Source: a virus
Taxonomy: Duplodnaviria > Heunggongvirae > Uroviricota > Caudoviricetes
DNA length: 64,000 nt
Virus record (IMG/VR): IMGVR_UViG_2029527006_000005
Reading direction: 5' to 3' (one strand)
Shown here: positions 3 to 63,955 of the stretch, one piece after another
Numbering within the stretch: position 1 is the first letter of the stretch
Layout of the letters: every line of letters starts with the position of its first letter
Notes under the pieces: generated by a model
Database searches by the model: none
What the model was told of the DNA's origin: nothing
What the model saw: only the letters and a program-made list of their open reading frames with translations
Position numbers and translations under genes: made by a program

Positions 3-2330
3 ATTTCAGATGCAGCATCAAATACAATTAATGAACTATCATCAGGATTAGGTGGTCAAGCCAATGAATTAACATATAATACTGTTAGTAAAGGAACATC
101 CGACGAAGTAACAACCGCTTCTGTTAATAAAGCAAAAGCAATTGAAACAAATGTCGATCCTAACCTTACTGGTATGAATCCTAATTCCTCAAACCCTTAT
201 AAAGCAAAAGTAACTGGTGAACGTCCTAAAAACTGGAACAGTGCTGAAGGTGTTTACTCAGATGCTAACCTAAATGATTTTATTGTACCTTATGATAACG
301 CTTTATTAAAATATGACAACTACACTTACCACTTTACTCTATTTGGATTGAGTTCCCCTGAATATCACCTATTCTGGGATAACCCAGATACCGAAGTTAA
401 TAGACATGTAATAGCGGAAAGTGGTGTAACTGGTAGATTTAGTATAGATAGTGTTCAAATTACAACTGCTGGCCCTGCATCACCGGGTTTAACAACAAAC
501 TTCTCATTTAATAACTGCGTAATGGCAATTTCTGAAAATAATGGTATGAGTTTGTTTAATGACCTTGTAGTACTAGCAAATGATCTAGGATATAACAAGT
601 TTATGGACCTACCTCTTATTATGGAAATGGATTTCATCGGTTTCCATCCAGTAACAGGTAAACCAGAACGTATACCGGGTCTAAACCGAAAATGGGCTGT
701 CCGTATTAATACAATTAAAGCTCGTGCAACTGAAAGTGGAGGTACTATTGTTTATGACTTACAAATGACTCGTGCACGTGCTGGATTAGTTGAAAATAAG
801 GATTGGATGCTCAAAGAACCATATACTTGTACTTCTGCAACGTTCGGTGACTTTGTTCAACAAATCCAAGACAAACTTAACAAGATGGCTCAAAAGCAAT
901 ACGGATATCTACAGTACCGTTACGATGAATTTGCTAATGGAATGTATTATGAAATTCACGTTCCTGATGAATTGGCTGCAATGTCAATTAACTACGACAT
1001 GAAACAATCTAAAGAAGTTGGAAATACAGTAAATGGCTCTGATGGTGCTAAAGACTTCTCTTGGGGTGCTGATGTTCCTGTATCTCGTGCATTCGATGAC
1101 GTTTTGGATACATGTATTCCAGTACAATCAAGTACTGACCGCCGTCGCCAATTTGTCAACATTATTCCAGTACAAAAATATGTCGGCTATGATCCAATTC
1201 GTGCAAACTTGGCTTATAAAAATCACTTCTACATTGTTAAGTATAATATTGGTGATGTTGTTAGTGAAGAAGACCTTAAACATGAAAAATTCAACTTCGA
1301 ATACTTCTTTGAAAACGCCGACAAGTATGCGGAACCGGGTAATAATGAACCTAAACTTAATATTAAACGCTACGACTATCAATTTACTGGTCTAAACCAA
1401 GAAATATTGAACCTAGAACTTAAATTCGACCAAGGATTTAACGTAGCAGTAACTCGTAACCCAGATACACAACGAGATATTGAAAACCGTAGTGGTACTC
1501 ACGCCGCTGAGTACATTCAATTGGGTGACACAATTTATGATACCTCTATCCGTACTAACGTAACCGATATGTGGAGTAAATCACAAGATTTAAAAGATGA
1601 ACAAAATAATGGTCGAGTTCTTTCAGATGAAGAACAACGTTTCATACGTGACACTGAAGCAGTAACATCTCAACAAATGAAAGTCGGTCAAGAAGATGAA
1701 CAAAATGAGCTATTTGGATATACTAGTACTGGCCCATCTTATATCGAAGACTACCGAAACGAATATGACATGACTTATGCTGGTACTGAAGGTATTGGTG
1801 GTAAAAATGGTACTATCGATGCTGTTCCTACTGAACCAGAGAACATTAAAACCGCTGTTTCAGGTTCAGAGAACGATAACAGTGGTAGCTATGAAATGGA
1901 TCGCCGTTTAATGCGTGACAACTATTATAACCGTACTTTCTTGAGTAAATTGGATATGAAAGTTGTCGGTGACCCGTTCTGGTTAGGCTGGAGTGACATT
2001 TCATATATGAATTACCTCCAAAAAGCCGTTGCAGGTGAAGATATGGAAGTAGATACTACCGATGTTCACTTTGCTAACTGGATTAACAGTGAAGCATACC
2101 TACTTTTAAACATAAAACCTGTTGTTGCTATCAGTGATAGTACTGGTATTCTAGATTATGATACACCAACAATATTTTCTCAAACTATATACCGTGTAAA
2201 CAAGGTTGTTAGTGATTTTGGTCCTAATGGATCATTCACACAACAACTTACTGGTGGTATAGTAATACGCTCTCTACGTAGACGTGACCAATTAACTGAC
2301 GACGACGAAGGAACCGCAAGCAATGGCTGA
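3..2330 (+). CDS. Putative baseplate hub-like virion protein; 5'-truncated by the window edge
   Basis: The frame of ORF 174..2330 stays open back to position 3 with no stop. C-terminal 'LDMKVVGDPFWL...YRVNKVVSDF..GSFTQQL' resembles gp27/late-control-D hub proteins. Lies directly upstream of the gp5-like spike. Confidence 0.5.
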   Translation: MSDAASNTINELSSGLGGQANELTYNTVSKGTSDEVTTASVNKAKAIETNVDPNLTGMNPNSSNPYKAKVTGERPKNWNSAEGVYSDANLNDFIVPYDNALLKYDNYTYHFTLFGLSSPEYHLFWDNPDTEVNRHVIAESGVTGRFSIDSVQITTAGPASPGLTTNFSFNNCVMAISENNGMSLFNDLVVLANDLGYNKFMDLPLIMEMDFIGFHPVTGKPERIPGLNRKWAVRINTIKARATESGGTIVYDLQMTRARAGLVENKDWMLKEPYTCTSATFGDFVQQIQDKLNKMAQKQYGYLQYRYDEFANGMYYEIHVPDELAAMSINYDMKQSKEVGNTVNGSDGAKDFSWGADVPVSRAFDDVLDTCIPVQSSTDRRRQFVNIIPVQKYVGYDPIRANLAYKNHFYIVKYNIGDVVSEEDLKHEKFNFEYFFENADKYAEPGNNEPKLNIKRYDYQFTGLNQEILNLELKFDQGFNVAVTRNPDTQRDIENRSGTHAAEYIQLGDTIYDTSIRTNVTDMWSKSQDLKDEQNNGRVLSDEEQRFIRDTEAVTSQQMKVGQEDEQNELFGYTSTGPSYIEDYRNEYDMTYAGTEGIGGKNGTIDAVPTEPENIKTAVSGSENDNSGSYEMDRRLMRDNYYNRTFLSKLDMKVVGDPFWLGWSDISYMNYLQKAVAGEDMEVDTTDVHFANWINSEAYLLLNIKPVVAISDSTGILDYDTPTIFSQTIYRVNKVVSDFGPNGSFTQQLTGGIVIRSLRRRDQLTDDDEGTASNG

Positions 2331-4992
2331 TACAAGTAAGATTTTCGCCAAGGATCAGTTGACTAGATTTGATCCTAGCTACCCACAACTAGCAACAGTC
2401 ATGGACAACCGAGATCCAACCAATAGTGGTAAACTAAAGGTCTGGATTCAAGGCTCTCAGAGTGACCGTGACGCAAAAGACTCATGGATTGAGGTAGGAT
2501 ACCTCTCTCCATTCGCAGGACGTACACCGGGTGTTCCCGGTGCTAATTCATACCAACAATTCCCGAAAGGGTATGGCTTTTGGGCTGTACCACCGGATGT
2601 TGGCTGTACTGTAGCTGTAATCTTCATTCAAGGCCGCCAATTCGAAGCATATTGGATTGGCTGCGTATACGATGAACGCATGAACACTATGGTTCCGGGT
2701 ATGGCAACCGAAAACCTACCAAATAGTGGGTATGATATGCCAGTACCTGTTACCGATTATGATCGTAACACAATTCAAACGAATTTGAAAGAAAAATATC
2801 CAAACGTACCAACAATCGAAGGTCTAAAGAAACAAAACCTTCTATATGATGAGGAAAAAGGTGCTGCAAACCGTTCAAGTACTCGTACTATCGCTAGTAC
2901 AGTGTACGGCATGAGTACTCCACGTGGTAACAGCTTCGTTCTTGATGACGGTTTCACCGAAGCCGAATTAAACAGACAAAACTGGAACCAAGACCCAGAC
3001 GGTTACCAAGATACACAAGTTAACAACCCCGTTAATGATACTGCGATCGGTACTCGCAAAAACGAAGGTATAGTACTACGTACTCGTAGTGGTGCTCAAC
3101 TACTTCTTTCAGAAGCAACTGGATCAGTGTTTATTATTAACCGTGATGGTACTGCTCGCATAGAAATGACACCAGAAGGGGATATTATGATTCACGGCGA
3201 TAAAAGTCTTAATGCCCGTATGGGTGAAGACATTAACCTAGTCGCTGGTCGTAATATTAATATACAAGCTGGTGCTGATATGCAATGTAGTGTTGCAGGA
3301 AATACTAAATTGAACCTTATTGGTACTCTAGATGCTAAAATTGGAGGCCAAGTCGTTATTAATGCTGGTGCTGACCTACGCTTAGTAACAGCCGCCACCC
3401 TTCGTGCTCAAGCAGGAAGTAGTGTTAACATAACATCTGGTACTAATACTGCGATTACAGCAGGTAGTAATGTGGATATCGGTGGAACAGTTGTAAACAT
3501 CACTGGCGGTGGTACTAGTCTTACTGTTAAAGCTGGGAGTACAGCAAGTACAGCAGAAATGGGTGCTCCAGACTTCAAAACACCTACTGTTGGACTTAAA
3601 GAACATATTCACTACCACCAATCATTCTCTAGTGCATCAAACCACAGTGATGCTATGGCCCCTCCGGTAAATGGCGGTGGTTCATCAAGTGCGAGTCCCG
3701 CTCAACCAGCAGAACCAGCTAACGATGTGGCTCCAGTGATCCCAGAAGAAACTGAATACGAAGCTGTTCAATATATTAACAGTACTCAAGAAGTTTCACA
3801 AGTGGTTACCCAAGATATGCTTTATTCAAGTGATAGCATGACATATACCCAAACATTCGAAGGTCTTTACATGTTTATGCCTTGTACCGGGACAATTCGT
3901 GAATTTGGTTATTGGGGTAAGAATGTTCCTACACAAGATGGTAACAAAGCTGACCGATATGGATGGACAATACAAACTAAAGGTAATGTAGTAGCTCCAG
4001 ACTTTGGTACTGTTTCACTTGTAGGTAATGGTGGTGTTGTAGTAGCACACATGAGTGGATACAAATCTGTATTCTATGGATTGGAAGTTACAGTACAGAA
4101 CGGAAGTCGAGTACAGAAAGGTGATGTTCTAGGTAATGGTAAAGGTATTATTGAATTCGAAATACGAAGAATTTCTTCTAATCTATTCGGTTTCAGTGGA
4201 ACAGTTGATCCGGGTCTATTCTATAGTACTGTTACTGGTGAAGGGGCCGAAGCCGCAAACCGGGCATTAACTGGTGGACAGCCTAGTAATCCTAATGCTC
4301 CAGCAGCAGATGCTACAACATTCTCAGAAAATAGTGACGAATTAGTTGTAATGACTAAAGTTAAAAGTATTGGTAGTACATATTCCCAGCGTGGTTCAAG
4401 ACATGTCCCTAGACGTAAAACTTCTGCACGTAGACAATCAGTACAAGATGATACTCCAGCTATTTCAATTGGTGTAGTTGATAAGGCAGCTATTGGATGG
4501 AAAGTTGTAGCTACGGACGAAAAATTAGTCAATGATACTATAAACTTTGAAGGTACTATTGCTTATCAAACAAAAGTAGGACACTTCCGAAATGGTAGAT
4601 TCTGGGTATTCCCAGATCCAGTTAAAGGACAAGATATTGGATACGGTCACTTAGTTACTGCAAGCGAACGGGCCAGTGGAGTGTTTAATAACGGTATTAC
4701 ACCAGATGAAGCTAAACAAATCCTAATTAAAGATTTACAAAGATCTGTAGATGGTGCTAAACGCCTATATGCTCAGTACTCGCTACAAACACCTTATTTG
4801 TGCCAGATAGTACTAGTAGAAATGGCATACCAAATGGGACCGGGTGCTCTTGGTAAATTTAAAGGTATGTTCAAAGCACTTCAACAAGGTAATTATAGAC
4901 TAGCTGCTCATCATATTCGTGATTCATTGTGGTACAGACAAACTACTCGCCGTGCTGAAACTATGGCACGTTATATGGAGGCTTGTCAATAA
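2323..4992 (+). CDS. gp5: Baseplate central spike (gp5/VgrG-like) with C-terminal degenerate M23-like and T4-type lysozyme domains
   Basis: N-terminal OB-fold motifs 'DNRDPTNSGKLKVWI' and 'WAVPPDVGCTVAVIF'. G/N/I-rich beta-helix repeats and an 'EHIHYH' tip motif. C-terminal 'FEG...IGYGHL...EMAYQMG...SLWYRQTTRRA' lysozyme. Confidence 0.85.
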   Translation: MADTSKIFAKDQLTRFDPSYPQLATVMDNRDPTNSGKLKVWIQGSQSDRDAKDSWIEVGYLSPFAGRTPGVPGANSYQQFPKGYGFWAVPPDVGCTVAVIFIQGRQFEAYWIGCVYDERMNTMVPGMATENLPNSGYDMPVPVTDYDRNTIQTNLKEKYPNVPTIEGLKKQNLLYDEEKGAANRSSTRTIASTVYGMSTPRGNSFVLDDGFTEAELNRQNWNQDPDGYQDTQVNNPVNDTAIGTRKNEGIVLRTRSGAQLLLSEATGSVFIINRDGTARIEMTPEGDIMIHGDKSLNARMGEDINLVAGRNINIQAGADMQCSVAGNTKLNLIGTLDAKIGGQVVINAGADLRLVTAATLRAQAGSSVNITSGTNTAITAGSNVDIGGTVVNITGGGTSLTVKAGSTASTAEMGAPDFKTPTVGLKEHIHYHQSFSSASNHSDAMAPPVNGGGSSSASPAQPAEPANDVAPVIPEETEYEAVQYINSTQEVSQVVTQDMLYSSDSMTYTQTFEGLYMFMPCTGTIREFGYWGKNVPTQDGNKADRYGWTIQTKGNVVAPDFGTVSLVGNGGVVVAHMSGYKSVFYGLEVTVQNGSRVQKGDVLGNGKGIIEFEIRRISSNLFGFSGTVDPGLFYSTVTGEGAEAANRALTGGQPSNPNAPAADATTFSENSDELVVMTKVKSIGSTYSQRGSRHVPRRKTSARRQSVQDDTPAISIGVVDKAAIGWKVVATDEKLVNDTINFEGTIAYQTKVGHFRNGRFWVFPDPVKGQDIGYGHLVTASERASGVFNNGITPDEAKQILIKDLQRSVDGAKRLYAQYSLQTPYLCQIVLVEMAYQMGPGALGKFKGMFKALQQGNYRLAAHHIRDSLWYRQTTRRAETMARYMEACQ

Positions 4993-5026
4993 ATATTTTA
5001 GGCGACTAAATAAAGGAGAATAAAAT

Positions 5027-5515
5027 ATGAGTTGGACTTTAACCGCTAATGACTCTCAATTCTTTTCAGATGTAAAAATCTATGAAGGATCTAAAGAGTT
5101 CCAAACAGCTAAAGGAATGTTCAAGAATGGAAAATTCTGGACATATAAAGATAGTCTAGGACTACCAACAATCGGCTACGGTCACTTGATTCGTCAAGGT
5201 GAAAACTTCTCTAATGGTCTCACTGAGGCCGAAGCCGAGGCGTTGCTTCAGAAAGATGCACTTAACGCTTATAAAGATGCTAAGTCAATTTATGAACAAT
5301 ATGGTATGAATGGACCAGTCGAACTTCAGCGTGTACTCTGGCAAATGACTTTCCAAATGGGTAAGTCGTCAGTACTCAACTTCCGCAAAGCACTTGTTGC
5401 TATGGGGAAAGGTGACTACAAAACTGCTGGTAGAGAAATGCGTGACTCTAGATGGTATAGACAAACTACCTCTCGTGCAGAAAAAATGGCTCGCATTGTA
5501 GAGGGACTTCAGTAA
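5027..5515 (+). CDS. T4-type (GH24) lysozyme
   Basis: 'YEG...YKDSLGLPTIGYGHL...MTFQMG...SRWYRQTTSRA' with the E/D/T triad present. Strong RBS AAGGAG. Confidence 0.9.
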   Translation: MSWTLTANDSQFFSDVKIYEGSKEFQTAKGMFKNGKFWTYKDSLGLPTIGYGHLIRQGENFSNGLTEAEAEALLQKDALNAYKDAKSIYEQYGMNGPVELQRVLWQMTFQMGKSSVLNFRKALVAMGKGDYKTAGREMRDSRWYRQTTSRAEKMARIVEGLQ

Positions 5516-5524
5516 GGATAATTA

Positions 5525-5917
5525 ATGGCAGTTATATTCAAAGGGTTCTCATCACCCATTGTTGGAAAAACTAAAGTACTATATGACGAAGAACTTGTTA
5601 AGCAAGACCTCCTAAATCATTTTAATACCAGAAAAGGTGAACGGGCTTTCGATGCCGAATACGGCTTCATTGGATGGGATTTCATCTTCGAACTCGACCA
5701 ACCAAGCGTTAAACAAGCACTTGATGATGATGCTCGACGTATAATTGCTCAAGATCCTCGCGTCGAAGTACAACACTTGGAAGTACTGAATACTGAATAC
5801 GGTTACCGTATCAATATTAACCTGTACTATGTTCAATTGGAATCAGTTGAAGACCTAGTAATAGTGTTCGATAGACGTACTAACGAAAAAATGGTAGCTA
5901 TAGCTTCTAACTTTTAA
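5525..5917 (+). CDS. gp25: Baseplate wedge subunit, gp25-like
   Basis: 'LLNHFNTRKGER...EYG...FE...IIAQDPRV' gp25/GPW pattern. Located between spike and gp6. Confidence 0.85.
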   Translation: MAVIFKGFSSPIVGKTKVLYDEELVKQDLLNHFNTRKGERAFDAEYGFIGWDFIFELDQPSVKQALDDDARRIIAQDPRVEVQHLEVLNTEYGYRININLYYVQLESVEDLVIVFDRRTNEKMVAIASNF

Positions 5918-5923
5918 TAAAAA

Positions 5924-5950
5924 GGCATCCGATTGGATGCCTTTCTTTTT
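5924..5950 (+). terminator. Rho-independent terminator
   Basis: GGCATCC-GATT-GGATGCC followed by TTTCTTTTT. Confidence 0.85.
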
Positions 5951-5985
5951 GATAAATATTTCTATACTAATATTCGAGGTACGTA

Positions 5986-6066
5986 ATGACAAAGAAGAAA
6001 ACCTATGATGAAGATCATATTTCAGTACTGAAAGAATACTTTATTAATATAGAATTAAAGGAATAA
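5986..6066 (+). CDS. 26-aa mini-ORF MTKKKTYDEDHISVLKEYFINIELKE (not in ORF track)
   Basis: GAGGT RBS 5 nt before the ATG. Lies downstream of TAAATA (5953-5958). Stop falls 5 nt before the gp6 start. Confidence 0.45.
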   Translation: MTKKKTYDEDHISVLKEYFINIELKE

Positions 6067-6071: not shown

Positions 6072-9000
6072 ATGTCACAACAAAAAAGACAATCAAATTT
6101 ATACGCCGCCGAGAATTGGAAGCAAGTGTATGAAAGTTTTTATAAAATCAATTTGACAGCCTACGATTTTGACACCATTCGTGAGAGTATGATCAATTAC
6201 TTAAGATTGACCTATCCCGATTCTTTTAATGACTGGATTGAGAATAGTGAATTCATCTTTATACTAGACACTATTTGTATGCTAGGACAAAACTTAGCAT
6301 TCCGAATGGACCTAAACTCTCGTGAAAACTTTTTGGACACAGCGGAACGCCGTGCTTCAGTACTAAAACTAGCGAAGATGATTTCTTACGCACCTAAACG
6401 GGCGTATCCGGGTCGTGGATTAGCTAAGTTAACTGAAATCAAGACAAACCAAGATATACGTAACAGTTACAATGAATCATTGCGTAACAAGACAATTCGT
6501 TGGAACGATCCTGCTGATAATAACTGGTATGAGAACTTTATTTTAGTTATGAACAGTTCATTTATTAGTTCTAACCAGTTTGGTAATCCTGTTAAGAAAA
6601 TTTCTACCAATGGTGTATCGAATCAATTATATCGAATGAACACCATACCTATGAGTGCACCTAGTATTCCATTTACTGCGGTGATCAATGGAACATCGAC
6701 TACATTTGAGGTAGTTAACCCTGATATTAACAGTATTGGTGCTGATGAACGTCACCCTGAACCACAAGATCAAAAATACATCATCTATCGTAATGATGGT
6801 AATGGTTTTGCATCTCCTAACACTGGATTCTTTGTTTACTTCAAGCAGGGAACATTATCTTATACAGATTATCAGTACGATATACGTATTGAAAACCGTA
6901 TACAGAATATTGACACTAACAACATTAATGAGACTGATGTTTGGGTACAAGAAATCAATGAGGATGGTATCGTTCGTTCTAAGTGGACAAAAGTACCGTC
7001 AATGGAGAGTATAGCTTATAACTCGGTAGATCGTCAATTAAAATCTATTTTCTCAGTAACAACCCGCGATAATGATCAGATTACTATTAAATTCCCTGAT
7101 CAACGAAGTGGTGTAGTACCTCGTGGGACATTCCGTGTATGGTATCGTGTGAGTAATGGAGAAACTTATAGTATTAAGACTTCTGATATTCAGAACAAAG
7201 GTATTAAGTACGTTTACCGTACTAAATCACAAACTGATTTCGAAAATAGTACTTTAGACATTAAATTCACGTTGCAGTACGAAACATCTTTGGCACAGAG
7301 TGCAGAAACTATTCAACAGATTAAAGATCGTGCACCACAGATGTATTATACACAAAACCGTTTTGTAAATGGTGAGGATTATAACATTGCACCGTTGATG
7401 TTAGGTAATACCGTACTAAAAGCTAAGGCACTTAATAGAATTTACTCTGGACAGTCCCGATTCATCGATATTAATGACCCTACCGGGAAATATCAAAATA
7501 CTGACGTATTTGCTGATGATGGTGCGATGTATAAAGAGAATAAAACTATTCGTCAGGGTGTTTTATTACCAACTGCTAAATCTAATGAAACTATTATAGT
7601 TGATTCTATTCAGCCTATCATTGGTGACACATCTGTTATTCAGACGTATCAAGAATGGGAGCCTAACACCGTATATCCAACTAATAACCAGCATTGGTCA
7701 CCTGAGTACAATTCATTGTATTCTAAAAATACGTATGGTCGTATTTTGATTAACGGTGAACCAACATCTGCTTATGATGTGGGTACATTAATCAACTTCA
7801 AAAGTAATACAACTTCTGGTTATTGGACAAGTATTGTTGGTCGTGAGGATAATGGTTATTACATTTTATCCAAACCAATTTCGGCTGATATGTTGATTTA
7901 TTCATATTTGAAGCCGTATCGTGTTCAGTTTAATACAGTTGAGATCCAAACTATTTCTGCTATGATGAATCGCAAGACTGATTTTGTTATTATCTATGAT
8001 ACTTCTACACTTTCTTGGATTCCAATTGAGGGTAGTACATCTGAAGCTACTATTCAGTACAATAATGTTACTTATCCAATTTTAGTTCGTGTTCAATACA
8101 CTGCTGAGTCATGGGAATTTGATGGATATGGTGTAAATTATGTATTTGTTGGTGGAGATAAGGTTAAGTTTTACTTTGTAAGTACTAAGAAGATATCTGA
8201 TATCAGTACTGGTACAGTACAAGCCGATAAGATTGACATTTTACCATGTAACAGTGTTCCTGATAACAATTTAGGATTAGGTGTTAATGTTGATTTCCAA
8301 ATTTTGGACACAATTCAGCAAGAAAATGGATATCTTGATGGTTCTCGTGTTATTATAACAAGTCAGGACGTTGATAGCAATGGAATTCCGTTGGAGCCTA
8401 ATCAATTTGCTTCTATTGTTCCTAAATTCACTGGTGAAGATGCTAAAAAGTATGGTGGGTTGTTGGTATTCCGCGAAAACACCGATTTCACGATTGACAT
8501 ATTGAATTTACCGTCAACTAACTTCACAGTACTTGATTCTAGTTGGACATATACTGAGGCACAAGCACAGGCAGAGGTTAACACATATAAACGTCAAGAA
8601 TTTATGCGTAACGTATTAATTCGTAGTACTTCTATGAGTGATTTATATGGTAAGGGTTCAGGATTTACTATTGGTTTCCAATATGATGGTAATTCATATT
8701 TTGTTGAACAGACTGTTGGTAATAACAATGATCGTTTAAACAACTTTATTGCTAACATGATTGAGCCTGATGATACATTTGAGATGACACCGGAAATTGC
8801 GTTTTACCGTGCTATTCAGAATGAGGGCAATTCACAGCTTCCAGCGAATAAAAAATTATCTTTCTATGGATATAAAGAAGTATCTAGTGAGTACTATTTT
8901 GTTTCTAATGCTCGTACCGGAATTATGTTCCATTGGAAGCATTACGCACCTGATGACAACCGAATTGACCCAAGTAAAACAAACTTAATTGATATGTATG

Positions 9001-9536
9001 TTCTAACGAACTCATATAAGACAAACATCGATTTGTGGATTAAGAATGGGGCTAAGGGCATTTTCCCTAAACCACCTACTAGTGTTGAATTGAAGGAAAT
9101 GTTCAAGGATGTTGAACAGAAGATTGTAATTAGTGATAGTATTATTTGGCACAGTGCGAATTATGTTCCTTTATTTGGTGATAGTGCAGATCCTGCATAT
9201 CAGGCTGATATCAAGGTCGTGAAGATTCCTAATAGTACATTAAGTGATGATGAGATACGTCAGAAGGTTATTAGTATAACCAATGATTTCTTTGATATCA
9301 ATTATTGGAACTTTGGTGATACATTCTTCTTCACTGAGTTATGTGCATACATCCACATGCAATTGAGTACTGAGATCAGTACTGTAGTGTTAGTTCCAAA
9401 CAACCCAAATAGTAAGTTTGGTGAATTGTTTGAGATACCATGCCAACCGGATCAGCTTTTTGTAAGTACTGCGACTGTTGATAACGTATCTATTATTAGC
9501 TCACTAGCTAAGAGTAACATCAATATTGGTAATTAA
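6072..9536 (+). CDS. gp6: Baseplate wedge protein, gp6-like
   Basis: 'YDFDTIRESMINYL...FNDW.E.SEF...ENFLDTAERRASVLKLAKMISY' and 'QNRFVNGEDY' are gp6/baseplate-J hallmarks. Confidence 0.85.
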   Translation: MSQQKRQSNLYAAENWKQVYESFYKINLTAYDFDTIRESMINYLRLTYPDSFNDWIENSEFIFILDTICMLGQNLAFRMDLNSRENFLDTAERRASVLKLAKMISYAPKRAYPGRGLAKLTEIKTNQDIRNSYNESLRNKTIRWNDPADNNWYENFILVMNSSFISSNQFGNPVKKISTNGVSNQLYRMNTIPMSAPSIPFTAVINGTSTTFEVVNPDINSIGADERHPEPQDQKYIIYRNDGNGFASPNTGFFVYFKQGTLSYTDYQYDIRIENRIQNIDTNNINETDVWVQEINEDGIVRSKWTKVPSMESIAYNSVDRQLKSIFSVTTRDNDQITIKFPDQRSGVVPRGTFRVWYRVSNGETYSIKTSDIQNKGIKYVYRTKSQTDFENSTLDIKFTLQYETSLAQSAETIQQIKDRAPQMYYTQNRFVNGEDYNIAPLMLGNTVLKAKALNRIYSGQSRFIDINDPTGKYQNTDVFADDGAMYKENKTIRQGVLLPTAKSNETIIVDSIQPIIGDTSVIQTYQEWEPNTVYPTNNQHWSPEYNSLYSKNTYGRILINGEPTSAYDVGTLINFKSNTTSGYWTSIVGREDNGYYILSKPISADMLIYSYLKPYRVQFNTVEIQTISAMMNRKTDFVIIYDTSTLSWIPIEGSTSEATIQYNNVTYPILVRVQYTAESWEFDGYGVNYVFVGGDKVKFYFVSTKKISDISTGTVQADKIDILPCNSVPDNNLGLGVNVDFQILDTIQQENGYLDGSRVIITSQDVDSNGIPLEPNQFASIVPKFTGEDAKKYGGLLVFRENTDFTIDILNLPSTNFTVLDSSWTYTEAQAQAEVNTYKRQEFMRNVLIRSTSMSDLYGKGSGFTIGFQYDGNSYFVEQTVGNNNDRLNNFIANMIEPDDTFEMTPEIAFYRAIQNEGNSQLPANKKLSFYGYKEVSSEYYFVSNARTGIMFHWKHYAPDDNRIDPSKTNLIDMYVLTNSYKTNIDLWIKNGAKGIFPKPPTSVELKEMFKDVEQKIVISDSIIWHSANYVPLFGDSADPAYQADIKVVKIPNSTLSDDEIRQKVISITNDFFDINYWNFGDTFFFTELCAYIHMQLSTEISTVVLVPNNPNSKFGELFEIPCQPDQLFVSTATVDNVSIISSLAKSNINIGN

Positions 9537-19644: not shown

Positions 19645-19672
19645 AAAAAGGAGCCTTTCGGCTCCTTTTTTT
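19645..19672. terminator. Bidirectional terminator between convergent genes
   Basis: AAAAAGGAGCC-TTTC-GGCTCCTTTTTTT. The same stem-loop occurs at 37298-37328. Confidence 0.9.
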
Positions 19673-21941
19673 ATTTCACGATAACAATCTTATCGTCTTG
19701 TACGCCGAACTCGACAACCCCACCATTTTGTAGTGAGCCACATAGCATTTCTTTTGCTAGTGGTAAGCGAATGTTCTGCTCAATGGTACGCTTCATAGGA
19801 CGTGCACCCATACCGCGTTGTACGCCGTTTTTAGCCAACCAAGCACGTGCATCATCATTTAGTTCTACAACCACGCCACGACCCGCTACGGCTTCAGAAA
19901 CCTGACTCATGAACTTGTCAATAACGTTGTCAATTGCCTGTGGTGATAGGTCTTTGAACTTCACGATTGCATCAATACGGTTACGGAACTCAGGTGGTAG
20001 GAATTCTTTGATAGCTTTATCCTGACCAGTTTCAGTTGAACCCATATTCATGCTGCGTTTACCAGCATCAGCAGCACCCAAGTTAGTAGTCATAATAACA
20101 GTTACGTTATTGAAGAAAACAGTCTTGCCCTTAGAACCAGTTAGACGACCTTCATCTAGTACCTGAAGGAAGGTTAGTAGTACTTTAGGGTGTGCCTTTT
20201 CAATCTCATCTAGAAGAAGAATTGCATTTGGATGCTGTTCTACTTGGTCTAGAAGTAGGCCGTTACCAGTGTCATGACCAACATAGCCGGGAGGTGAACC
20301 AATTAGTTTTGCAACGGTATGTTCTTGAGAGAACTCAGACATATCGAAACGAATTAGTTTAGAACCCATTGCATCTGCTAGTGCTTTGGTAATTTCAGTC
20401 TTACCAGTACCGGATGGTCCAACAAACATGAACGCACCTTGTACGCTAGAAGCATCACGTAGGCCAGCACGAGCTACCATTACGTTATCAACTAGTGTAT
20501 TAACTGCTTCTTCCTGACCGAACACACGATTACGTAGCATTTCTGGTAGTTCAATCATACGAGTACTTTCAGTACAAGCAACTACAGAAAGATCTAGGTT
20601 TGCGATACCTGCAACAACTTCTTCGATATCTTTACGTGTTACTACTAGATCAGTACCAGTTTTAGTACGATTCTTCGCCGCTGAAGCATCTAGTAGATCG
20701 ATTGCCTTATCAGGATAACGGCGGTTCTGTAGGAACTTCTTAGATAGCTCCATGATAGCACTCATCGCTTCTTCTGTATAGGTTACGCCGTGGAATTCTT
20801 CGTATTTGGATTTGATACCATTTACGATTTGAGTAGTTTCCTCGAACGTTGGTTCTGATACGTCAATTTTCATGAAACGACGAGATAGTGCACCGTCTTT
20901 TTCAATGTGCTGACGATATTCATCATAAGTGGTCGCCCCAATAACACTAATTTCACCACGTGATAGTGCTGGTTTGATTAGGTTGCTCATATCCATAGTA
21001 CCGGAAGATGAAGAACCTGCACCCATGATAGTGTGAATTTCATCGATGAATACGATGGTGTTTTCACGAGTTTTAATTTCTTTTAGGAAATTATCTACAC
21101 GTTCTTCGAATTCGCCGCGATACTTAGTACCAGCAGTGAACGAACCCATGTTTAGAGAAAGAATGGTTAGATCTTTCATGTGTTCTGGAACGTTACCATC
21201 AACGATAGCTTGTGCTAGACCGTCAATAATTTGTGTTTTACCAACACCAGCTTCACCAGCTAGGCATGGGTTCTTTTTGGTACGACGAGAAAGAGTTTCT
21301 ACTAGTGCAAGTAGTTCTTTTTCACGTCCAATCATTGGATCTAGTTTACCTTCACGAGCTAGCTCAGTTAGGTTGGTAGTGTAGTCTTCAATAGACTTCT
21401 TACCAGATGATGGTTGCTGTTGAGCCACACGGCCTCCTTTCTGTTCGGTTTTAACACTCTGGGTCAAATCTACATCGGCACGTCTTTCGCTTACGTACTT
21501 CTGAAGTGAACGTGCTACTTCAGTGCGGGTCAACGACTGCTCTTTAAGAGCTACTTCTAGTGCTGTGTTGGAGAACGATAAGCACTCGAATAGTACAAAG
21601 AACCCTTCAACCGTAAAATCATCATTTTTTAATTGTTCGATTACTGATTGTTTTTGTAGTTCATACATTACACGAGTTACTAGTACTGAAACTGGTACTT
21701 GCTCATCTCCAATTGCTTCTTTCACTGATAGTGGAAGCTGTGGTGGTGGAACTTCACGAAGGTAACCTTCGATACGCTGACTTAGTTGGTCAGTATCAAT
21801 TGAAAACGTTTCTAGTGCTGTTTTCACACTGTCAACTTTAAGAGCGATTGCACTTAGATGGTCAATCGTCATGAACTCATGGCCTAGGCTACGTGCAAAG
21901 GCTTTACTATCGTCATATAAATCTTGAAAACTGTAACTCAT
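19671..21941 (-). CDS. clpA: ClpA-like Hsp100 AAA+ ATPase
   Basis: Two Walker A motifs (GEAGVGKT, GPSGTGKT) plus 'GTKYRGEFEER', 'RFDMSEF', 'LIGSPPGYVG' and 'GARP'. No ClpB M-domain. Start reassigned to MSYSFQD (ATG at 21941, GGAG RBS). Confidence 0.9.
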   Translation of the reverse strand: MSYSFQDLYDDSKAFARSLGHEFMTIDHLSAIALKVDSVKTALETFSIDTDQLSQRIEGYLREVPPPQLPLSVKEAIGDEQVPVSVLVTRVMYELQKQSVIEQLKNDDFTVEGFFVLFECLSFSNTALEVALKEQSLTRTEVARSLQKYVSERRADVDLTQSVKTEQKGGRVAQQQPSSGKKSIEDYTTNLTELAREGKLDPMIGREKELLALVETLSRRTKKNPCLAGEAGVGKTQIIDGLAQAIVDGNVPEHMKDLTILSLNMGSFTAGTKYRGEFEERVDNFLKEIKTRENTIVFIDEIHTIMGAGSSSSGTMDMSNLIKPALSRGEISVIGATTYDEYRQHIEKDGALSRRFMKIDVSEPTFEETTQIVNGIKSKYEEFHGVTYTEEAMSAIMELSKKFLQNRRYPDKAIDLLDASAAKNRTKTGTDLVVTRKDIEEVVAGIANLDLSVVACTESTRMIELPEMLRNRVFGQEEAVNTLVDNVMVARAGLRDASSVQGAFMFVGPSGTGKTEITKALADAMGSKLIRFDMSEFSQEHTVAKLIGSPPGYVGHDTGNGLLLDQVEQHPNAILLLDEIEKAHPKVLLTFLQVLDEGRLTGSKGKTVFFNNVTVIMTTNLGAADAGKRSMNMGSTETGQDKAIKEFLPPEFRNRIDAIVKFKDLSPQAIDNVIDKFMSQVSEAVAGRGVVVELNDDARAWLAKNGVQRGMGARPMKRTIEQNIRLPLAKEMLCGSLQNGGVVEFGVQDDKIVIVK

Positions 21942-21978
21942 AAGTGCTCTCCTATTGAAATTTTGCACGACATAATAA

Positions 21979-22007
21979 ATTATATCACAAAAAAACTGAT
22001 TTGTCCC
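21979..22007 (-). promoter_or_regulatory. GGGACA-N17-TATAAT promoter (copy 1), upstream of clpA
   Basis: Minus strand GGGACA-AATCAGTTTTTTTGTGA-TATAAT. Confidence 0.8.
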
Positions 22008-22014
22008 AAAAAAG

Positions 22015-22020
22015 TAAATA
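22015..22020 (+). promoter_or_regulatory. Late promoter core TAAATA
   Basis: 30 nt upstream of the neck gene, back-to-back with the clpA promoter. Confidence 0.55.
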
Positions 22021-22049
22021 CAAATATATAAACATTTTGGAGACAACAA

Positions 22050-41873: not shown

Positions 41874-41896
41874 ATCAAAATTCCTCTTGTTGGATT

Positions 41897-41922
41897 AAAA
41901 GAGGATGGCAACTGCCATCCTC
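41897..41922 (-). terminator. Strong terminator between the AAA and vWA genes
   Basis: Minus strand GAGGATGGC-AGTT-GCCATCCTC-TTTT. Confidence 0.8.
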
Positions 41923-41929
41923 ATACTTC

Positions 41930-43258: not shown

Positions 43259-43404
43259 ATGTTATTTCCTCATTTGGATTATAAAAAAGTACTTCATCGT
43301 TTAAGTTACGTTTGACGCTTATCCATAAGCAAAAGAGAAGGCACTGCGTTACTCATAACTTAGTGCCTTGTTAGTATTCCGTACTGTTCTCTTAATATGC
43401 GTTT

Positions 43405-54621: not shown

Positions 54622-55410
54622 TTATCCAATTATGAAACCTAATGGCATTCCACCATCTTTATAGTTACGCAATTGTTGTTCTAATTTTTCTTGTAATGCA
54701 AAACCTTCTTGACGTAAAGTGTCACCATCCATTGAGAATGTACCTTGTGGTCCGGGTAGTGTTGCAAACTTAGAACGGTTTGTACCCAACATAATCTTAG
54801 CTTCTGCTAAAGTCCAGTCACGAATCCAAGGATAGGACATTTGTTGACGGAATAGCATTTCTTCAGGAACGTTTTGGAACACATGTAGTAGTACTTCTTC
54901 TGTTCCACGAATATCACGGTCAATGATTAGTTTCTTGTTAACGGAGTTCCATTGGAAGATGATTTCACGACCAAATAGACGTGCAACCGTTTCATCAAAC
55001 TGGTGATATAGATCGTATGTTAGTAATCCACCACCTGTTGCACCACGCACAGCACTAAGCAAATAAGTATTACTATATGCTAGTGAGAATGGGTCAACTG
55101 TTGAACCTTCACCACTTACTACACCGTTACCACGGCGATAGATTCTGCGAACAATTTCAACTTCAGTAGGTAGTACATACACTGACTCAGAAGGGTATAA
55201 TTTCATATGTAAAAATGCTTCTTCTTTTGAAGCACTTGACCATGCACGATAGTTTTCTACAGCATTATCAATCGCAATTTCAAGCTGCCCGTCAGTAATT
55301 TCAACGTTTACTGCACCAGCACCTAACATTTGCGTGATTTTATCTTTTAGTTTTTCTCGGTGGTCAAACTGTGGTGATTCTGGATCACCGCCTTGATAAT
55401 CATAAGACAT
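54622..55410 (-). CDS. gp13: Neck protein, gp13-like
   Basis: 'LG...VNVE.TD.QL...ID.A...W...T.A..K...G.N.SKF..LPG....DG'. TATAAATA at 55441-55448. Confidence 0.85.
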   Translation of the reverse strand: MSYDYQGGDPESPQFDHREKLKDKITQMLGAGAVNVEITDGQLEIAIDNAVENYRAWSSASKEEAFLHMKLYPSESVYVLPTEVEIVRRIYRRGNGVVSGEGSTVDPFSLAYSNTYLLSAVRGATGGGLLTYDLYHQFDETVARLFGREIIFQWNSVNKKLIIDRDIRGTEEVLLHVFQNVPEEMLFRQQMSYPWIRDWTLAEAKIMLGTNRSKFATLPGPQGTFSMDGDTLRQEGFALQEKLEQQLRNYKDGGMPLGFIIG

Positions 55411-57012: not shown

Positions 57013-57261
57013 TTATTTATTGTTGGTTTTTTGAAGAAAATCAACAACCTCTTGTGGGGAACATACCTTGAAAACTTCTTCTAGTAAAGCATCATACTCC
57101 GCTTTACGTTCACTGTACTTACGTAGTGCAGCCATTCTCTTACGGGTAGCTGTCTCAATACCATCTACATCAAGAGGCTGGAAATCAACCCCTAGACGCT
57201 TTGCTAGTTCTTCTGCACGAGAAGTACATTTAGTATGAAAATCACTGATCGTTTGAGTCAT
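57013..57261 (-). CDS. Hypothetical protein
   Basis: Start MTQTISD overlaps the glutaredoxin 3' end. Confidence 0.55.
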   Translation of the reverse strand: MTQTISDFHTKCTSRAEELAKRLGVDFQPLDVDGIETATRKRMAALRKYSERKAEYDALLEEVFKVCSPQEVVDFLQKTNNK

Positions 57262-57508
57262 CTTGTTTCTCACTTTTTGCTTTGAGGAATTTAATGAACT
57301 CAGTACATCCACCAACGTACTCATCATCCACAAAAATTTGTGGTACAGTACTAACTGGCTTACCAACAATTTCGATTAGATCGTCTTTTGTCATACCAGT
57401 ACTTTCCATATCGATAAATTCCATATCGAATTTGTTCTGGACGCAAATATCTTTTGCTGTGGTGCAATAAGGGCAACCAACTGAACGACCATAAATTTTT
57501 ACTTTCAT
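57242..57508 (-). CDS. Glutaredoxin
   Basis: CPYC active site and 'TVPQIF......GG'. Confidence 0.93.
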   Translation of the reverse strand: MKVKIYGRSVGCPYCTTAKDICVQNKFDMEFIDMESTGMTKDDLIEIVGKPVSTVPQIFVDDEYVGGCTEFIKFLKAKSEKQDDSNDQ

Positions 57509-57509
57509 C

Positions 57510-57950
57510 TTATCTTCCTTTCTTCTTCTGGAACTGCTTCACAGCTTTTACAATACTGCTACACATTCGCTTGGTCAAATACAATTCACAGTCTTCTACA
57601 TCAATGTATTTGAACTTATCAAGTTCAGGCTTTGTTTGACCGTACTTATTTGTGTAAGTACTAATACATTTTAGTTCTTTCGGTTCTGGCTTATATTTAG
57701 CGGTGTAATAAAATAATATAAGACGTTTTCCTTTTCTATACGATACATCACCAATCAAAAGGAGATCTTTTTCATCAATCTTAAAACTGGTTTCTTCATA
57801 ACACTCCCGAACAGCCGCTTCTGCATAGCTTTCTTCACCTTCAGCTTTTCCTTTAGGTAAATCCCAATGCTCTTGTCCAGTAGTGTGACCTATAAGTATC
57901 TGACCATCACGATAAAAAATTATTCCGCATGTGTATCGCATATTTTTCAT
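57510..57950 (-). CDS. Nudix hydrolase
   Basis: 'WDLPKGKAEGEESYAEAAVRECYEET'. Confidence 0.9.
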   Translation of the reverse strand: MKNMRYTCGIIFYRDGQILIGHTTGQEHWDLPKGKAEGEESYAEAAVRECYEETSFKIDEKDLLLIGDVSYRKGKRLILFYYTAKYKPEPKELKCISTYTNKYGQTKPELDKFKYIDVEDCELYLTKRMCSSIVKAVKQFQKKKGR

Positions 57951-60158: not shown

Positions 60159-60168
60159 ACACAACTCC

Positions 60169-61092
60169 TTATAGGGAACTAAGAAGGATTTCAGCACGGT
60201 TTCCAACTTGTTTGAACCATAGTGAACCTTCTATTTCTTTTTTGAACTTACGAGGGTTTTCGTTCTTTACACTATTCCACAATTTCGTGAATTTGTCAAG
60301 TTTATCGACACCCATAGTGAAAGCCATCTCGTATAAAATACGCTGTTGCTCTTTTGTGAGATTTACAGCATTTTTCCGTTGCAATAGTAAAGTGAAGTCA
60401 TTGTAAGTACGGGTCATATCTTTCTTTAGTAGCTGTTTAGCTTCATAATCAGAAATACCTTTTTTGTACTTTATTGCGTCGGAATCCTTTTTACCTAAGT
60501 AATGTCCATATCCGATGGTATAGTTGCCTTTAACATCTTTATAAGGATAGAACTTAGAATTTTTGTATGACGGACCAACTGTACCGCCAAGTAATTTGCG
60601 TTTTATCACAGCTTGAGATTCTTTCGAACCTTCAGCTTGTTTGATATAATCTACTACTTCTTTATCAAGATGATCGAAGTGAATAGTTACATCAGGTAGA
60701 ATAACAGACTTCAAATCATTCTCATTAGGTAAATGTACTGGTTTACTAACATGTAGTACTTTGATTCCCGAATTAACACGTTTAAACACGTCAATGTACG
60801 GGTACATTTCAACATTCTCTGGCTTAAACTTTTGAGCGATTACCCAAAACGTATCCTTTGACTGTACAATATACTGTTTTCTGCTTTCCGTCTTATACAC
60901 AGTTGCTTTTTGAATCGGCAATGTGGTAACGGGCGGTTGCTTTTGAATTTGAATAACTTGTGGTTTTATTTGTACACCTGAATTTGATGACGGTGTACTA
61001 TCATTGTGTTTATAACCAATATATCCAATAGCTCCAGCCACTAACAGAAAACTTATTAAAACATAAGTTTTGAGTTGTTGGAACGCTCTCAC
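60169..61092 (-). CDS. Membrane-anchored LysM-like + T4-type lysozyme (endolysin candidate)
   Basis: GTG start with AGGAG RBS and an N-terminal hydrophobic helix. 'YIVQSKDTFWVIA' LysM-like segment. 'AEG...YKDVKGNYTIGYGH...EMAF.MG...SLW.KQV..RA' lysozyme. Confidence 0.8.
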   Translation of the reverse strand: MRAFQQLKTYVLISFLLVAGAIGYIGYKHNDSTPSSNSGVQIKPQVIQIQKQPPVTTLPIQKATVYKTESRKQYIVQSKDTFWVIAQKFKPENVEMYPYIDVFKRVNSGIKVLHVSKPVHLPNENDLKSVILPDVTIHFDHLDKEVVDYIKQAEGSKESQAVIKRKLLGGTVGPSYKNSKFYPYKDVKGNYTIGYGHYLGKKDSDAIKYKKGISDYEAKQLLKKDMTRTYNDFTLLLQRKNAVNLTKEQQRILYEMAFTMGVDKLDKFTKLWNSVKNENPRKFKKEIEGSLWFKQVGNRAEILLSSL

Positions 61093-61189
61093 TGGTTTCT
61101 CCTATGTTATGGAAACTCCGCACATCTGGACTCAGTTGAGGCCATGTTTGCACAAAGCCTCGTTGGACTTCCTACAATAGTCTATTTGA

Positions 61190-62180: not shown

Positions 62181-62181
62181 T

Positions 62182-62322
62182 TTATAATCCGAATATCTGA
62201 AGTAGGGAATATAAGAATAGCACAGTTACCGCACCTAATGCAACTGTTAAGATTGGATTCATTTTCAACGACACTTGAAAGTTCAAGTAAGAAGCGAAAA
62301 GAAAATTACGAACATGTTTCAT
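62182..62322 (-). CDS. 46-aa membrane peptide (not in ORF track)
   Basis: MKHVRNFLFASYLNFQVSLKMNPILTVALGAVTVLFLYSLLQIFGL, with AAGGA RBS. Stop lies 1 nt before the 2H gene ATG. Confidence 0.65.
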   Translation of the reverse strand: MKHVRNFLFASYLNFQVSLKMNPILTVALGAVTVLFLYSLLQIFGL

Positions 62323-62338
62323 ATTTAGTCCTTGAATG

Positions 62339-62363
62339 AAAAAGCCCCAATTTTCATGGGGCT
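62339..62363 (-). terminator. Terminator after the TROVE-like gene
   Basis: Minus strand AGCCCCA-TGAAAAT-TGGGGCT-TTTT. Confidence 0.8.
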
Positions 62364-62370
62364 ATGTTAC

Positions 62371-63894
62371 TTATCCGATGACCTTGTAGCGTGGTACATC
62401 AATCGCTGCAAGCATAATAGATACTGGATCTACTTGCTCACCTGATAGGATGGCTTTTAGAATTGCTGGACTAAAACCAGAAACCATTGCAGTTCCAGTT
62501 TCATCGAAGGTAACAGGGTTGTTACCAACACGACCATTTAGGTTCCAGAATACTACGTTAGGTAGTTTGTAACCAGCAGAAGCAAAAGCAGCTTTCGCAT
62601 ACTCATGGGCTGTTACATCCCAATTCCCTTCGTTTCCACCACCGTAAGTACAGTTGAATTCCATATCACTATAGATAATCATGTACTCAGGCATATCTTC
62701 TTGTGGTACATTTTGCTTCACAGCAACTTCTAGTACCTTTTCAAATGCCTTACCAATGTCAGTACTGCCACCCCAATATTCGTAACCTTCGTAATGACGT
62801 AGATCATAATACTTCTGATAAATGTCTTTACCTTCGAGTACAAATAGTTGTGGTTCTTCACTGAAGGTCAAGAATACATCCTTGAATGCACCCTTTTGCT
62901 TATCAGCAGTATAAAGAGATAGAGACATAGCTACATCTAAGCAGCTTAGTGATCCGGTTCCACCAGCAGAACAGCCCATAGAACCACTAGTATCACACAT
63001 TGGTAGAATACTAGCACCGTTTAGGAAATCTGGTAGTGCATCCCACTGGCCGATTAGTACATTGTCACGATTGCAATTGTTGAACTTAGTAGTAATGTCG
63101 TAAGGGAACAATGCTCCCGCATTTACCTTGACTTCACCACTTGCAACTTTCTCTCCGAACGCAGTGAAACGTTCTTCATCGTTACGCATAAATGCAGCAC
63201 GATAACGGTTCATTGCTACTGATGGTACATGTGAGTACTCAATTGATGACCAATCACGTGCACACATGTTCTGCTCTACGGTAGAACTTAGTGAGGAAAG
63301 TAGCTTGCGGTACTGTTTCTCGTTCAAGTTCATTACTTGCATTAGTTCACGTGCAATTGTATTGTTTGCAATACGGTTCTGGTTCGCTACTGTATCCTTA
63401 GATACATTACCGTTTTTGTCTTTCTTTAGCTTATAGATGCGTGGCATCCATTTAGCACAAAGAGCATTACCAGCACGAAGATGTGCTTCGATGGTACGAT
63501 ACGCATCTAGTTTTACCTGTGGGTTGGTAAAGATTAGTAGATCATCCCAACGACCATACTCTGCGAGTACTGGAATGATTTCAGAAAGATCATCTTGATG
63601 ATTTTCTTCCAAGAAACGAAGAATCTGACGAGTCGTTTCACGCTCACCTGCACCACCACGTACATCACGAACCCATAGGGTCATTTGTAGGGTTAGTTTA
63701 CGGTTAGCGGCATACGCCTTTTCAAACGCAGTTTGGAATGTGGAGAAATCCTTACCACGTACTGCACCAAGGATCGCGAAGAGATCAACCAATGGGTTCA
63801 ATGAACTCGCATGGGATACTGCACCGTTAGCGGTTACGCCTACGTTATCTTCAGCTTTGGTGTTTACATTTTGGACTGCATCTTTGAATGACAT
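62371..63894 (-). CDS. DUF2828 / Ro60(TROVE)-like protein with C-terminal vWA domain
   Basis: 'RDVRGGAGER', 'EYGRWDDL', 'AKWMPR', MIDAS 'DTSGSM', 'SDMEF', 'VFWNL' and 'SGFS'. Confidence 0.8.
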   Translation of the reverse strand: MSFKDAVQNVNTKAEDNVGVTANGAVSHASSLNPLVDLFAILGAVRGKDFSTFQTAFEKAYAANRKLTLQMTLWVRDVRGGAGERETTRQILRFLEENHQDDLSEIIPVLAEYGRWDDLLIFTNPQVKLDAYRTIEAHLRAGNALCAKWMPRIYKLKKDKNGNVSKDTVANQNRIANNTIARELMQVMNLNEKQYRKLLSSLSSTVEQNMCARDWSSIEYSHVPSVAMNRYRAAFMRNDEERFTAFGEKVASGEVKVNAGALFPYDITTKFNNCNRDNVLIGQWDALPDFLNGASILPMCDTSGSMGCSAGGTGSLSCLDVAMSLSLYTADKQKGAFKDVFLTFSEEPQLFVLEGKDIYQKYYDLRHYEGYEYWGGSTDIGKAFEKVLEVAVKQNVPQEDMPEYMIIYSDMEFNCTYGGGNEGNWDVTAHEYAKAAFASAGYKLPNVVFWNLNGRVGNNPVTFDETGTAMVSGFSPAILKAILSGEQVDPVSIMLAAIDVPRYKVIG

Positions 63895-63955
63895 ATATTC
63901 TTCCTCTCAGAAATGGATAATTTGTTTGAGTGTTGACTCATTTCTTAATAACTTA

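Follow-up and report, generated by a model that had tools for sequence, protein, structure and literature searches.

A frame-independent AGTACT palindrome is enriched and maintained by selection across RaK2-like jumbo phage genomes

Introduction

The highly iterated palindrome HIP1 (GCGATCGC) of cyanobacteria is short, is the most abundant word of its length, occurs independently of reading frame in genes and in spacers, and is conserved above neutral expectation with no established function. HIP1-like iterated palindromes have been unexplained for decades in cyanobacteria, organisms that are hard to manipulate. Here we describe a comparable signal, the hexamer AGTACT, in a 64,000-nucleotide stretch of tailed-phage DNA (IMG/VR record IMGVR_UViG_2029527006_000005; the whole stretch is called the window below), in the phages related to it and in a second phage family. 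The signal was noticed in an earlier reading of the window's sequence, referred to as the original prediction.

Other systems share single aspects of this signal. Chi (GCTGGTGG), the FtsK-orienting polar sequences (KOPS), the DNA uptake and uptake signal sequences (DUS/USS) and the Chi-rich lambdoid phages are cases of a word maintained genome-wide whose density marks one class of DNA; these words are polar and non-palindromic, and their readers are known (RecBCD, FtsK, ComP). The SlmA-binding site of E. coli (consensus GTGAGTACTCAC) is a palindrome with an AGTACT core that is distributed over the chromosome and read by a dimer. TF1 of Bacillus phage SPO1 is an HU-type protein encoded by the phage; it has a preference for phage DNA, and its sites overlap early promoters. 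No publication describing an AGTACT excess was found in the literature searched, nor did its titles and abstracts hold anything relevant on the extended form CAGTACTG.

Results

AGTACT occurs 148 times in the window (G+C 38.7%), in contrast to 24.8 ± 4.1 copies in 100 dinucleotide shuffles (maximum 36); base composition predicts 21.1 copies and a third-order Markov model 70.7. It ranks first of the 4096 hexamers, the second-ranked reaching 82 copies. A maximal-order Markov model built from pentamers predicts 142.6, a value that returns below with the flanking letters. The sites are more evenly spaced than random placement would give (coefficient of variation (CV) 0.69 versus 0.99 ± 0.08). All 15 starts listed in the original prediction, from 569 to 6024, are exact matches, its G+C estimate of ~37% was close to the measured value, and it had correctly read the frames of three sites (AGT-ACT at 1131, xxA-GTA-CTx at 569 and xAG-TAC-Txx at 4775) and the intergenic position of the site at 43288. 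It had also judged by eye that the density was similar in genes of both strands; open reading frames (ORFs) contain 145 of the sites, with every frame and either coding strand represented.

The window is 84% identical at the nucleotide level to Salmonella phage Munch, to PHA46, 7t3 and SE_PL and to Klebsiella phage fENko-Kae01, and ~70% identical to CBB, GAP32, 121Q-type coliphages and others; between the tail sheath proteins of the window and RaK2 the identity is 67%. With genes for sheath, tube, baseplate hub, a 3341-aa protein and fibres, the window is, judged by similarity and gene content, the structural-gene region of a RaK2-like jumbo myovirus of the Munch/fENko-Kae01 type. Ten RaK2-like genomes hold 850–1356 AGTACT sites versus 130–200 copies of a control, the reversed word counted in the same genomes (Table 1). 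The enrichment in whole genomes is 7–8-fold, the opposite of the depletion by which an avoided ScaI/Eco255I-type restriction target is recognised. AGTACT is the top hexamer in Munch and GAP32, as in the window, and is tied for the top in RaK2. A comparison with related phages had been proposed as a check, and it found the excess in all ten genomes of the clade and not in the outgroups: the jumbo phages PA5oct, Atu_ph07 and RsoM2USA (common sheath 38–56% identical), T4 and E. coli K-12 are depleted, not enriched. The depletion in the outgroup jumbo phages places the onset of the trait at the root of the RaK2-like clade. Per unit length, phage DNA carries 27–40 times as many AGTACT as the DNA of E. 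coli K-12.

Table 1. Copies of AGTACT and of the reversed control word in individual genomes.
Genome	AGTACT	Control word
Munch	850	149
RaK2	937	142
GAP32	1011	169
CBB	1235	187
Hallingskeid	1313	200
XbC2	1105	186
XaC1	1356	130
121Q	903	134
fENko-Kae01	941	150
PA5oct (outgroup jumbo phage)	15	40
Atu_ph07 (outgroup jumbo phage)	25	82
RsoM2USA (outgroup jumbo phage)	62	176
T4	29	51
E. coli K-12 (4.64 Mb)	400	1147

ORF-based gene models cover 95% of the window and place 76, 19 and 50 sites in codon phases 0, 1 and 2 and three between genes. When synonymous codons were shuffled within each gene, preserving the protein sequence and the codon usage of that gene, 42.5 ± 6.0 in-gene sites were obtained versus the 145 observed (z = 17.2), and the observed/expected ratio (O/E) was 3.1, 4.0 and 3.7 in frames 0, 1 and 2, respectively. 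The view that codon bias alone is insufficient is thus upheld: the ratio does not approach 1 after control for amino acids and codons, and the enrichment is not confined to one frame. AGTACT is denser outside long ORFs (3.5–4.3/kb) than inside them (2.3–2.6/kb). Roughly 80% or more of the sites lie inside genes, spread evenly along them, and the profile is flat over gene bodies and dips only at ribosome-binding sites and stop codons. The early-gene/terminal-repeat region is two- to three-fold denser in AGTACT, and a search of the jumbo genomes for large clusters of an origin- or pac-like kind found none besides tandem promoters. Strand and flank statistics were pooled over the whole genomes of Munch, RaK2 and GAP32, with coding sites oriented by gene. 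On sense strands the half-words AGTAC (3632) and GTACT (3689) are symmetric, a result that rejects an RNA-level motif and lacks the orientation bias of the polar identity words. These results demonstrated that the AGTACT excess is real and not a coding artefact, and that the signal is at the DNA level, neither RNA nor protein.

Conservation was examined in alignments of the window with its relatives. AGTACT was retained at 68 of 142 aligned sites in Munch (45.1 expected, z = 4.1) and at 35 of 102 in GAP32 (15.8 expected, z = 5.3); no retention signal was seen with RaK2 at that distance, and turnover of sites among relatives is substantial despite the excess retention. Restricted to positions with identical amino acids, 65 of 100 sites were kept in Munch (44.6 expected, z = 4.1) and 32 of 43 in GAP32 (14.5 expected, z = 5.6). 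The codons ACT, AGT, GTA and TAC were retained more often inside the motif than outside it in 8/8 comparisons, six of them with p < 0.05. Block spacing in Munch, RaK2 and GAP32 is mildly under-dispersed, with a CV of 0.83–0.94 versus a null of 0.98 ± 0.03 and at least 0.99 for control words. A horizontally mobile AP2-like gene in Munch contains zero AGTACT. Taken together, these data suggest that many sites, and the way they cover the genome, are under weak purifying selection. Shuffle and conservation tests agree in supporting a frame-independent, HIP1-like iterated palindrome under selection, as had been proposed, and we regard the excess, its DNA-level nature and its maintenance by selection as solid.

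The preferred word is longer than six letters. In the three pooled genomes, every phase shows a 1.6–2.6-fold excess of C at -1 and of G at +6 over the codon-position background; T at -3/-4 and A at +8/+9 are also preferred, but less strongly. The full preferred form is the 12-bp palindrome TTCAGTACTGAA, and the graded best form is (TT)CAGTACTG(AA). This flank preference is strongest in RaK2 (247 CAGTACTG, 34 exact TTCAGTACTGAA) and weaker in Munch and in the window. Enrichment is graded within the hexamer as well: in the window, GTAC with neither outer letter (BGTACV) is about at expectation, half-sites with one right outer letter (AGTACV/BGTACT) are ~2.7-fold enriched, and words with both are 7-fold enriched. 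The two outer letters combine multiplicatively (275 × 265 / 511 = 142.6 versus 148 observed), and in whole genomes the surplus over this product is merely 1.1–1.16-fold. One-mismatch variants are enriched 1.5–3.6-fold when the mismatch is at an outer position; at the four inner positions the values are 0.2–2.2-fold, mostly near 1. Such grading resembles a binding-energy matrix; a restriction or modification enzyme would recognise its word in an all-or-none manner. None of the one-step transition precursors of AGTACT is depleted in whole genomes, and the deamination neighbours AGTATT/AATACT are likewise not depleted (O/E 1.0–1.3). The signature expected of very-short-patch-type biased repair is therefore missing.

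A minority of sites have a fixed place in promoters. RaK2 contains 19 AGTACT pairs exactly 20 bp apart versus 2.5 expected, and a stereotyped host-type promoter, aaaAGTACTTGACA-N~12-(c)AGTACT(g/t)TATAAT, in which two copies bracket the -35 and -10 boxes. GAP32 and Munch have the same double-site layout at 20–23 bp within the early region, and there are 11–19 double-site promoters per relative genome. RpoD-like early promoters are known for CBB and GAP32, and these, as well as the T4-like promoter-stem-loop cassettes, resemble the double-site promoters in being sigma70-type with an UP-like A-tract; they differ in that the published account mentions neither AGTACT nor its genome-wide excess (PMC5259590). 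The AGTACT-flanked promoters of the relatives are those same RpoD-like early promoters. The element around 43288 in the window (Table 2) is a single-site version of them, and AGTACT(T/G)TATAAT recurs in Munch, GAP32 and RaK2. Fixed placement overlapping -35 and -10, as expected of operators, is thus found in the double sites of the relatives and in one single-site element of the window; the confinement to regulatory regions that operators usually display is not found, most sites being genic. Since double-site promoters account for just 2–4% of all AGTACT sites, they cannot explain the genome-wide excess. Two further promoter-like words were seen in the window. The extended -10-like box TGTGATATAAT, of which overlapping 12-mers occur 22–26 times in Munch, is probably a second promoter class, and the T4-late-type word TATAAATA stands upstream of two genes.

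The same word was found in a second group of phages. A pattern scan of IMG/VR for three nearby CAGTACTG returned a family of ~31–33-kb proviruses. One of them, G001 (31,128 bp, 41.6% G+C), carries 140 AGTACT (4.5/kb, 14.6-fold over expectation) as its top hexamer, mostly in the form CAGTACTG, and four relatives carry 88–140 copies versus 8–11 of the control word. G001 encodes a lambda-type terminase and an HK97-type capsid; it has zero GCGC, and 24 palindromic hexamers are wholly absent. Its nearest terminase, 40% identical, is that of phage DCP80, which is not AGTACT-rich, and the family had no match among complete E. coli genomes. A tblastn comparison of all G001 ORFs with Munch, RaK2, GAP32 and the window gave matches for just two of them, the gene of a 154-aa lysozyme and an AP2-like mobile gene of sporadic occurrence. 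The lack of a common DNA-binding gene weakens the case for one homologous reader encoded by the phages; it would be compatible with a host-encoded reader, a small fast-evolving protein or a reader-free explanation. The triple-CAGTACTG scan of genome contigs gave, among the matches listed, Porphyromonas, Bacteroidales and Actinomycetota (~1 site/kb) and no enteric genome, and one very dense locus among them matched neither phage group. Between two convergent genes of G001, a stretch of ~105 bp contains five CAGTACTG-type sites (L248 4017–4122, equal to L093 756–861); this cluster may be a dedicated binding array of a centromere-, pac- or origin-like kind. The window has three lysozyme-like domains (Table 2) that are 30–39% identical to the 154-aa lysozyme of the provirus, whose gene contains zero AGTACT.

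Methylation was considered from published data and from gene content. Nanopore sequencing of native versus whole-genome-amplified DNA found Hallingskeid modified at GATC and CCWGG and Kaldavass at those motifs and TGCAT; neither AGTACT modification nor a nick-associated motif was reported for either phage (PMC11780129). Taking the published results as reported, modification of AGTACT should have been easily detectable in Hallingskeid with its 1313 sites. Pfam families of methyltransferases were searched in Munch, RaK2, GAP32, CBB and Hallingskeid, a search that the original prediction had suggested, and they proved patchy across the five genomes: PF01555 (N6/N4 methyltransferase) in GAP32 and CBB only, PF00145 (C5 methyltransferase, ~290 aa) in RaK2, GAP32, CBB and Hallingskeid, and PF02086 (D12-class) in none. 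Munch has no match to any of the three families, yet has 850 AGTACT. The association with a cognate methyltransferase that has been proposed for HIP1 was thus not found.

Coordinates in the window are collected in Table 2. The window and its relatives are purged of many palindromes: 26 of the 64 palindromic hexamers are missing from the window although 3–21 copies of each are expected, and 16–27 are absent from the whole ~350-kb genomes of Munch, RaK2 and GAP32. GCGC is absent from the window and from all three genomes (215–353 expected per genome). Palindrome counts are nearly all-or-none, with EcoRI, EcoRV, XbaI, NdeI and ClaI sites at normal levels, and the unrelated 31-kb provirus lacks almost the same set. 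Among leucine codons of the window CTA makes up 43% and CTG 1%, while the trinucleotide CTG is still over-represented overall, in other phases. The Chi sub-words CTGGTG, GCTGGT and TGGTGG are among the most over-represented hexamers of the window, probably a Gly/Ala codon effect, and seven E. coli Chi octamers are present. The long fibre-like ORF carries 10 of the 12 plus-strand copies of the 10-mer TGTAACTGGT in the window, indicating an internally repeated peptide motif. Several cargo-like genes lie among the structural genes.

Table 2. Features of the window, with positions counted from its first letter.
Feature	Coordinates	Strand	Remarks
AGTACT array, 148 palindromes	569–63571	both coding strands, three frames	mean spacing 429 bp, largest gap 1539 bp
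Close AGTACT pair, 12 bp apart	9366–9383		within ORF 6072–9536
Intergenic AGTACT, full 12-bp palindrome TTCAGTACTGAA	6024–6029		ORF end 5917, next ORF start 6072
Intergenic AGTACT	57398–57403		between ORFs 57013–57369 and 57510–57950 (gene model of this analysis)
Promoter-like AGTACT-TTTT-TATAAT, AGTACT at 43288	43278–43293	-	-10-like box 19 nt upstream of ATG 43258 of AAA-ATPase gene 41930–43258
Extended -10-like box TGTGATATAAT	21979, 40372, 43405, 63956	-	three of four upstream of minus-strand genes
T4-late-type TATAAATA	9569	+	44 nt upstream of start (9613) of gene for 3341-aa protein
T4-late-type TATAAATA	55441	-	31 nt upstream of start of gene 54622–55410
Lysozyme-like paralogue	4546–4965	+	C-terminus of baseplate-hub ORF 2323–4992
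Lysozyme-like paralogue	5027–5515	+	
Lysozyme-like paralogue	60181–60669	-	
Fibre-like ORF, 1586 aa	29830–34590	+	'long tail fiber' in Munch
ClpB-type double AAA+ chaperone	19671–22121	-	cargo-like
AAA ATPase beside DUF2201 metallopeptidase/VWA protein	40446–43258	-	cargo-like
DUF2828/DUF7788 protein	62371–63894	-	cargo-like
Chi octamers	32236, 33376, 33919, 34009	+	
Chi octamers	46386, 51052, 62960	-	

Discussion

Of the systems described, HIP1 is the one that AGTACT resembles in rank (top word in the window, Munch, GAP32 and G001, tied in RaK2), in frame independence with presence in non-coding DNA, and in conservation beyond neutral expectation, synonymous positions included. It differs from HIP1 in being a hexamer with graded flanks, in belonging to phages and not to cells, in being built into early promoters, and in that no cognate AGTACT methylation has been reported (PMC11780129) and Munch matches none of the three methyltransferase families. 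From Chi, KOPS and the uptake sequences it differs in being symmetric, rare in the host and not copied from it. The proposed logic is that of TF1, an abundant DNA-binding protein selective for the phage chromosome with preferred sites in early promoters, with the difference that TF1 recognises hydroxymethyluracil DNA and not a sequence word. Three host readers were considered and rejected. The flanks required by SlmA are opposite to those preferred here, where G at -1 (0.04–0.21) and C at +6 (0.03–0.09) are the least favoured letters and, among 8-mer contexts, GAGTACTC is the rarest. For E. coli gyrase, the published motif spans ~130 bp and is degenerate, unlike a sharp hexamer (PMC6379681). 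A regulon of a host transcription factor leaves no signal in E. coli K-12, which has 78 CAGTACTG versus 60 copies of the control word.

We tentatively favour the reading that AGTACT forms an array of sites for a candidate two-fold-symmetric DNA-binding protein, given the graded, symmetric flanks tuned by subclade and the operator-like placement in early promoters. Selection holds AGTACT at ~1 per 300–430 bp over the whole RaK2-like chromosome, and the sites would serve as weak-to-moderate docking sites for a dimeric protein, of phage or host origin, that acts chromosome-wide. The density contrast with E. coli K-12 would concentrate such a reader on phage DNA. It would probably also gate early transcription, most simply by occluding the -35/-10 boxes: a protein bound to either promoter copy would cover part of the -35 or of the extended -10 contact. 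The idea in the original prediction of a site for a DNA-organising or packaging protein, or of a self-recognition tag, fits these data.

Several observations weigh against a dimeric reader. Neither the shared-gene nor the Pfam hunt yielded a reader protein: tblastn of all G001 ORFs found no DNA-binding protein common to G001 and the jumbo phages, Pfam RHH_1 gave no match above the cut-off, and matches to PrlF came only from GAP32, CBB and XbC2. Unrelated ~31-kb proviruses carry the same word and flanks at 4.5/kb and share just the lysozyme and the AP2-like gene. Information peaks at the very centre of the palindrome (GTAC), a pattern more usual for enzymes or beta-ribbon proteins than for helix-turn-helix dimers. 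Operators of specific repressors are normally avoided elsewhere in a genome, so that ~900 extra sites would require an abundant reader. Duplicated promoter cassettes of common descent could account for part of the fixed positioning in promoters. Finally, the flanks act independently, and a strand-by-strand reading of the pentamer AGTAC therefore fits equally well on this point.

That reading would have 5'-AGTAC-3' recognised on either strand by a DNA-tracking machine, for instance a packaging motor, a primase/helicase loader or a helicase-nuclease that the word attenuates in the way Chi attenuates RecBCD, with the palindrome serving both strands. The 5' A and the 3' T are independent given GTAC apart from the 1.1–1.16-fold excess in whole genomes, half-sites are ~2.7-fold enriched and bare GTAC is not, coverage along genes is uniform with spacing slightly more even than random, and the occurrence in two unrelated phage groups with no detectable common DNA-binding gene would suit a host machine. 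We consider it unlikely all the same, as it leaves the fixed placement beside the early-promoter -35 and -10 unexplained, the symmetry of the extended flanks holds in all frames, Chi and KOPS, the known examples, have a polarity and are not palindromes, and we know of no such tracking enzyme for AGTACT. Selection on the DNA itself, with no sequence-specific reader, would make the flexible GTAC/TA step a physical punctuation that eases bending in packaging or interrupts H-NS-type silencing filaments on AT-rich phage DNA. The phages have 32–41% G+C and have purged most other palindromes, so AGTACT is maybe the sole safe symmetric word left to them, the sites are evenly spread, and no reader turned up; set against this, the word is very specific, with inner-position neighbours of similar composition mostly unenriched, its flank preference varies by subclade (CAGTACTG strong in RaK2, weaker in Munch) as the specificity of a co-evolving protein would, and neither T4 nor the outgroup jumbo phages have the excess. 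The G+C content of T4 is about 35%. On balance a reader-free explanation of this kind seems improbable.

Two further explanations appear very improbable, to about the same degree. One is the methyltransferase target maintained by VSP-like (very-short-patch-like) biased repair, as proposed for cyanobacterial HIP1 and put forward in the original prediction. The analogy with HIP1 and the ~290-aa C5-methyltransferase gene in RaK2, GAP32, CBB and Hallingskeid speak for it. The nanopore motifs of Hallingskeid and Kaldavass are GATC, CCWGG and TGCAT only (PMC11780129), Munch has its sites with none of the three families, AGTATT and AATACT are undepleted, and host DNA, which meets the same repair systems, has a deficit of AGTACT; these results largely refute the proposal. 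The other is a functionless by-product of codon or dicodon usage, restriction-site avoidance or neutral mutational bias. AGT, ACT and GTA are indeed preferred codons, the pentamer-based maximal-order Markov model comes close to the observed count, and the genome is heavily shaped by palindrome avoidance. Control for protein and codon usage nevertheless leaves z = 17 with all frames enriched, non-coding DNA has the stronger excess, conservation at synonymous positions varies with context and no precursor word is depleted. The purged GTAC-containing palindromes, moreover, are expected just ~8 times each in the window and cannot supply >120 extra sites.

A further reading is that the array is a sequence-encoded mark meaning 'this is phage DNA', whose reader would use the density contrast to direct transcription control, protection, replication or packaging. 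We consider this rather unlikely. If true, it would do for these phages what base modification does in T4, in a code common to unrelated small proviruses.

Whatever reads it, the signal occurs in culturable phages of E. coli, Klebsiella and Salmonella, with ~900 sites per genome, a sharp on/off boundary in the phylogeny and fixed positions in early promoters, and in such phages a reader could be identified by simple experiments. Should AGTACT be a self mark of phage DNA, viral and host DNA would be told apart by sequence, as an alternative to base modification. Recoding or synthesising these jumbo phages, which are candidates for therapy, with no heed to AGTACT could cripple them.

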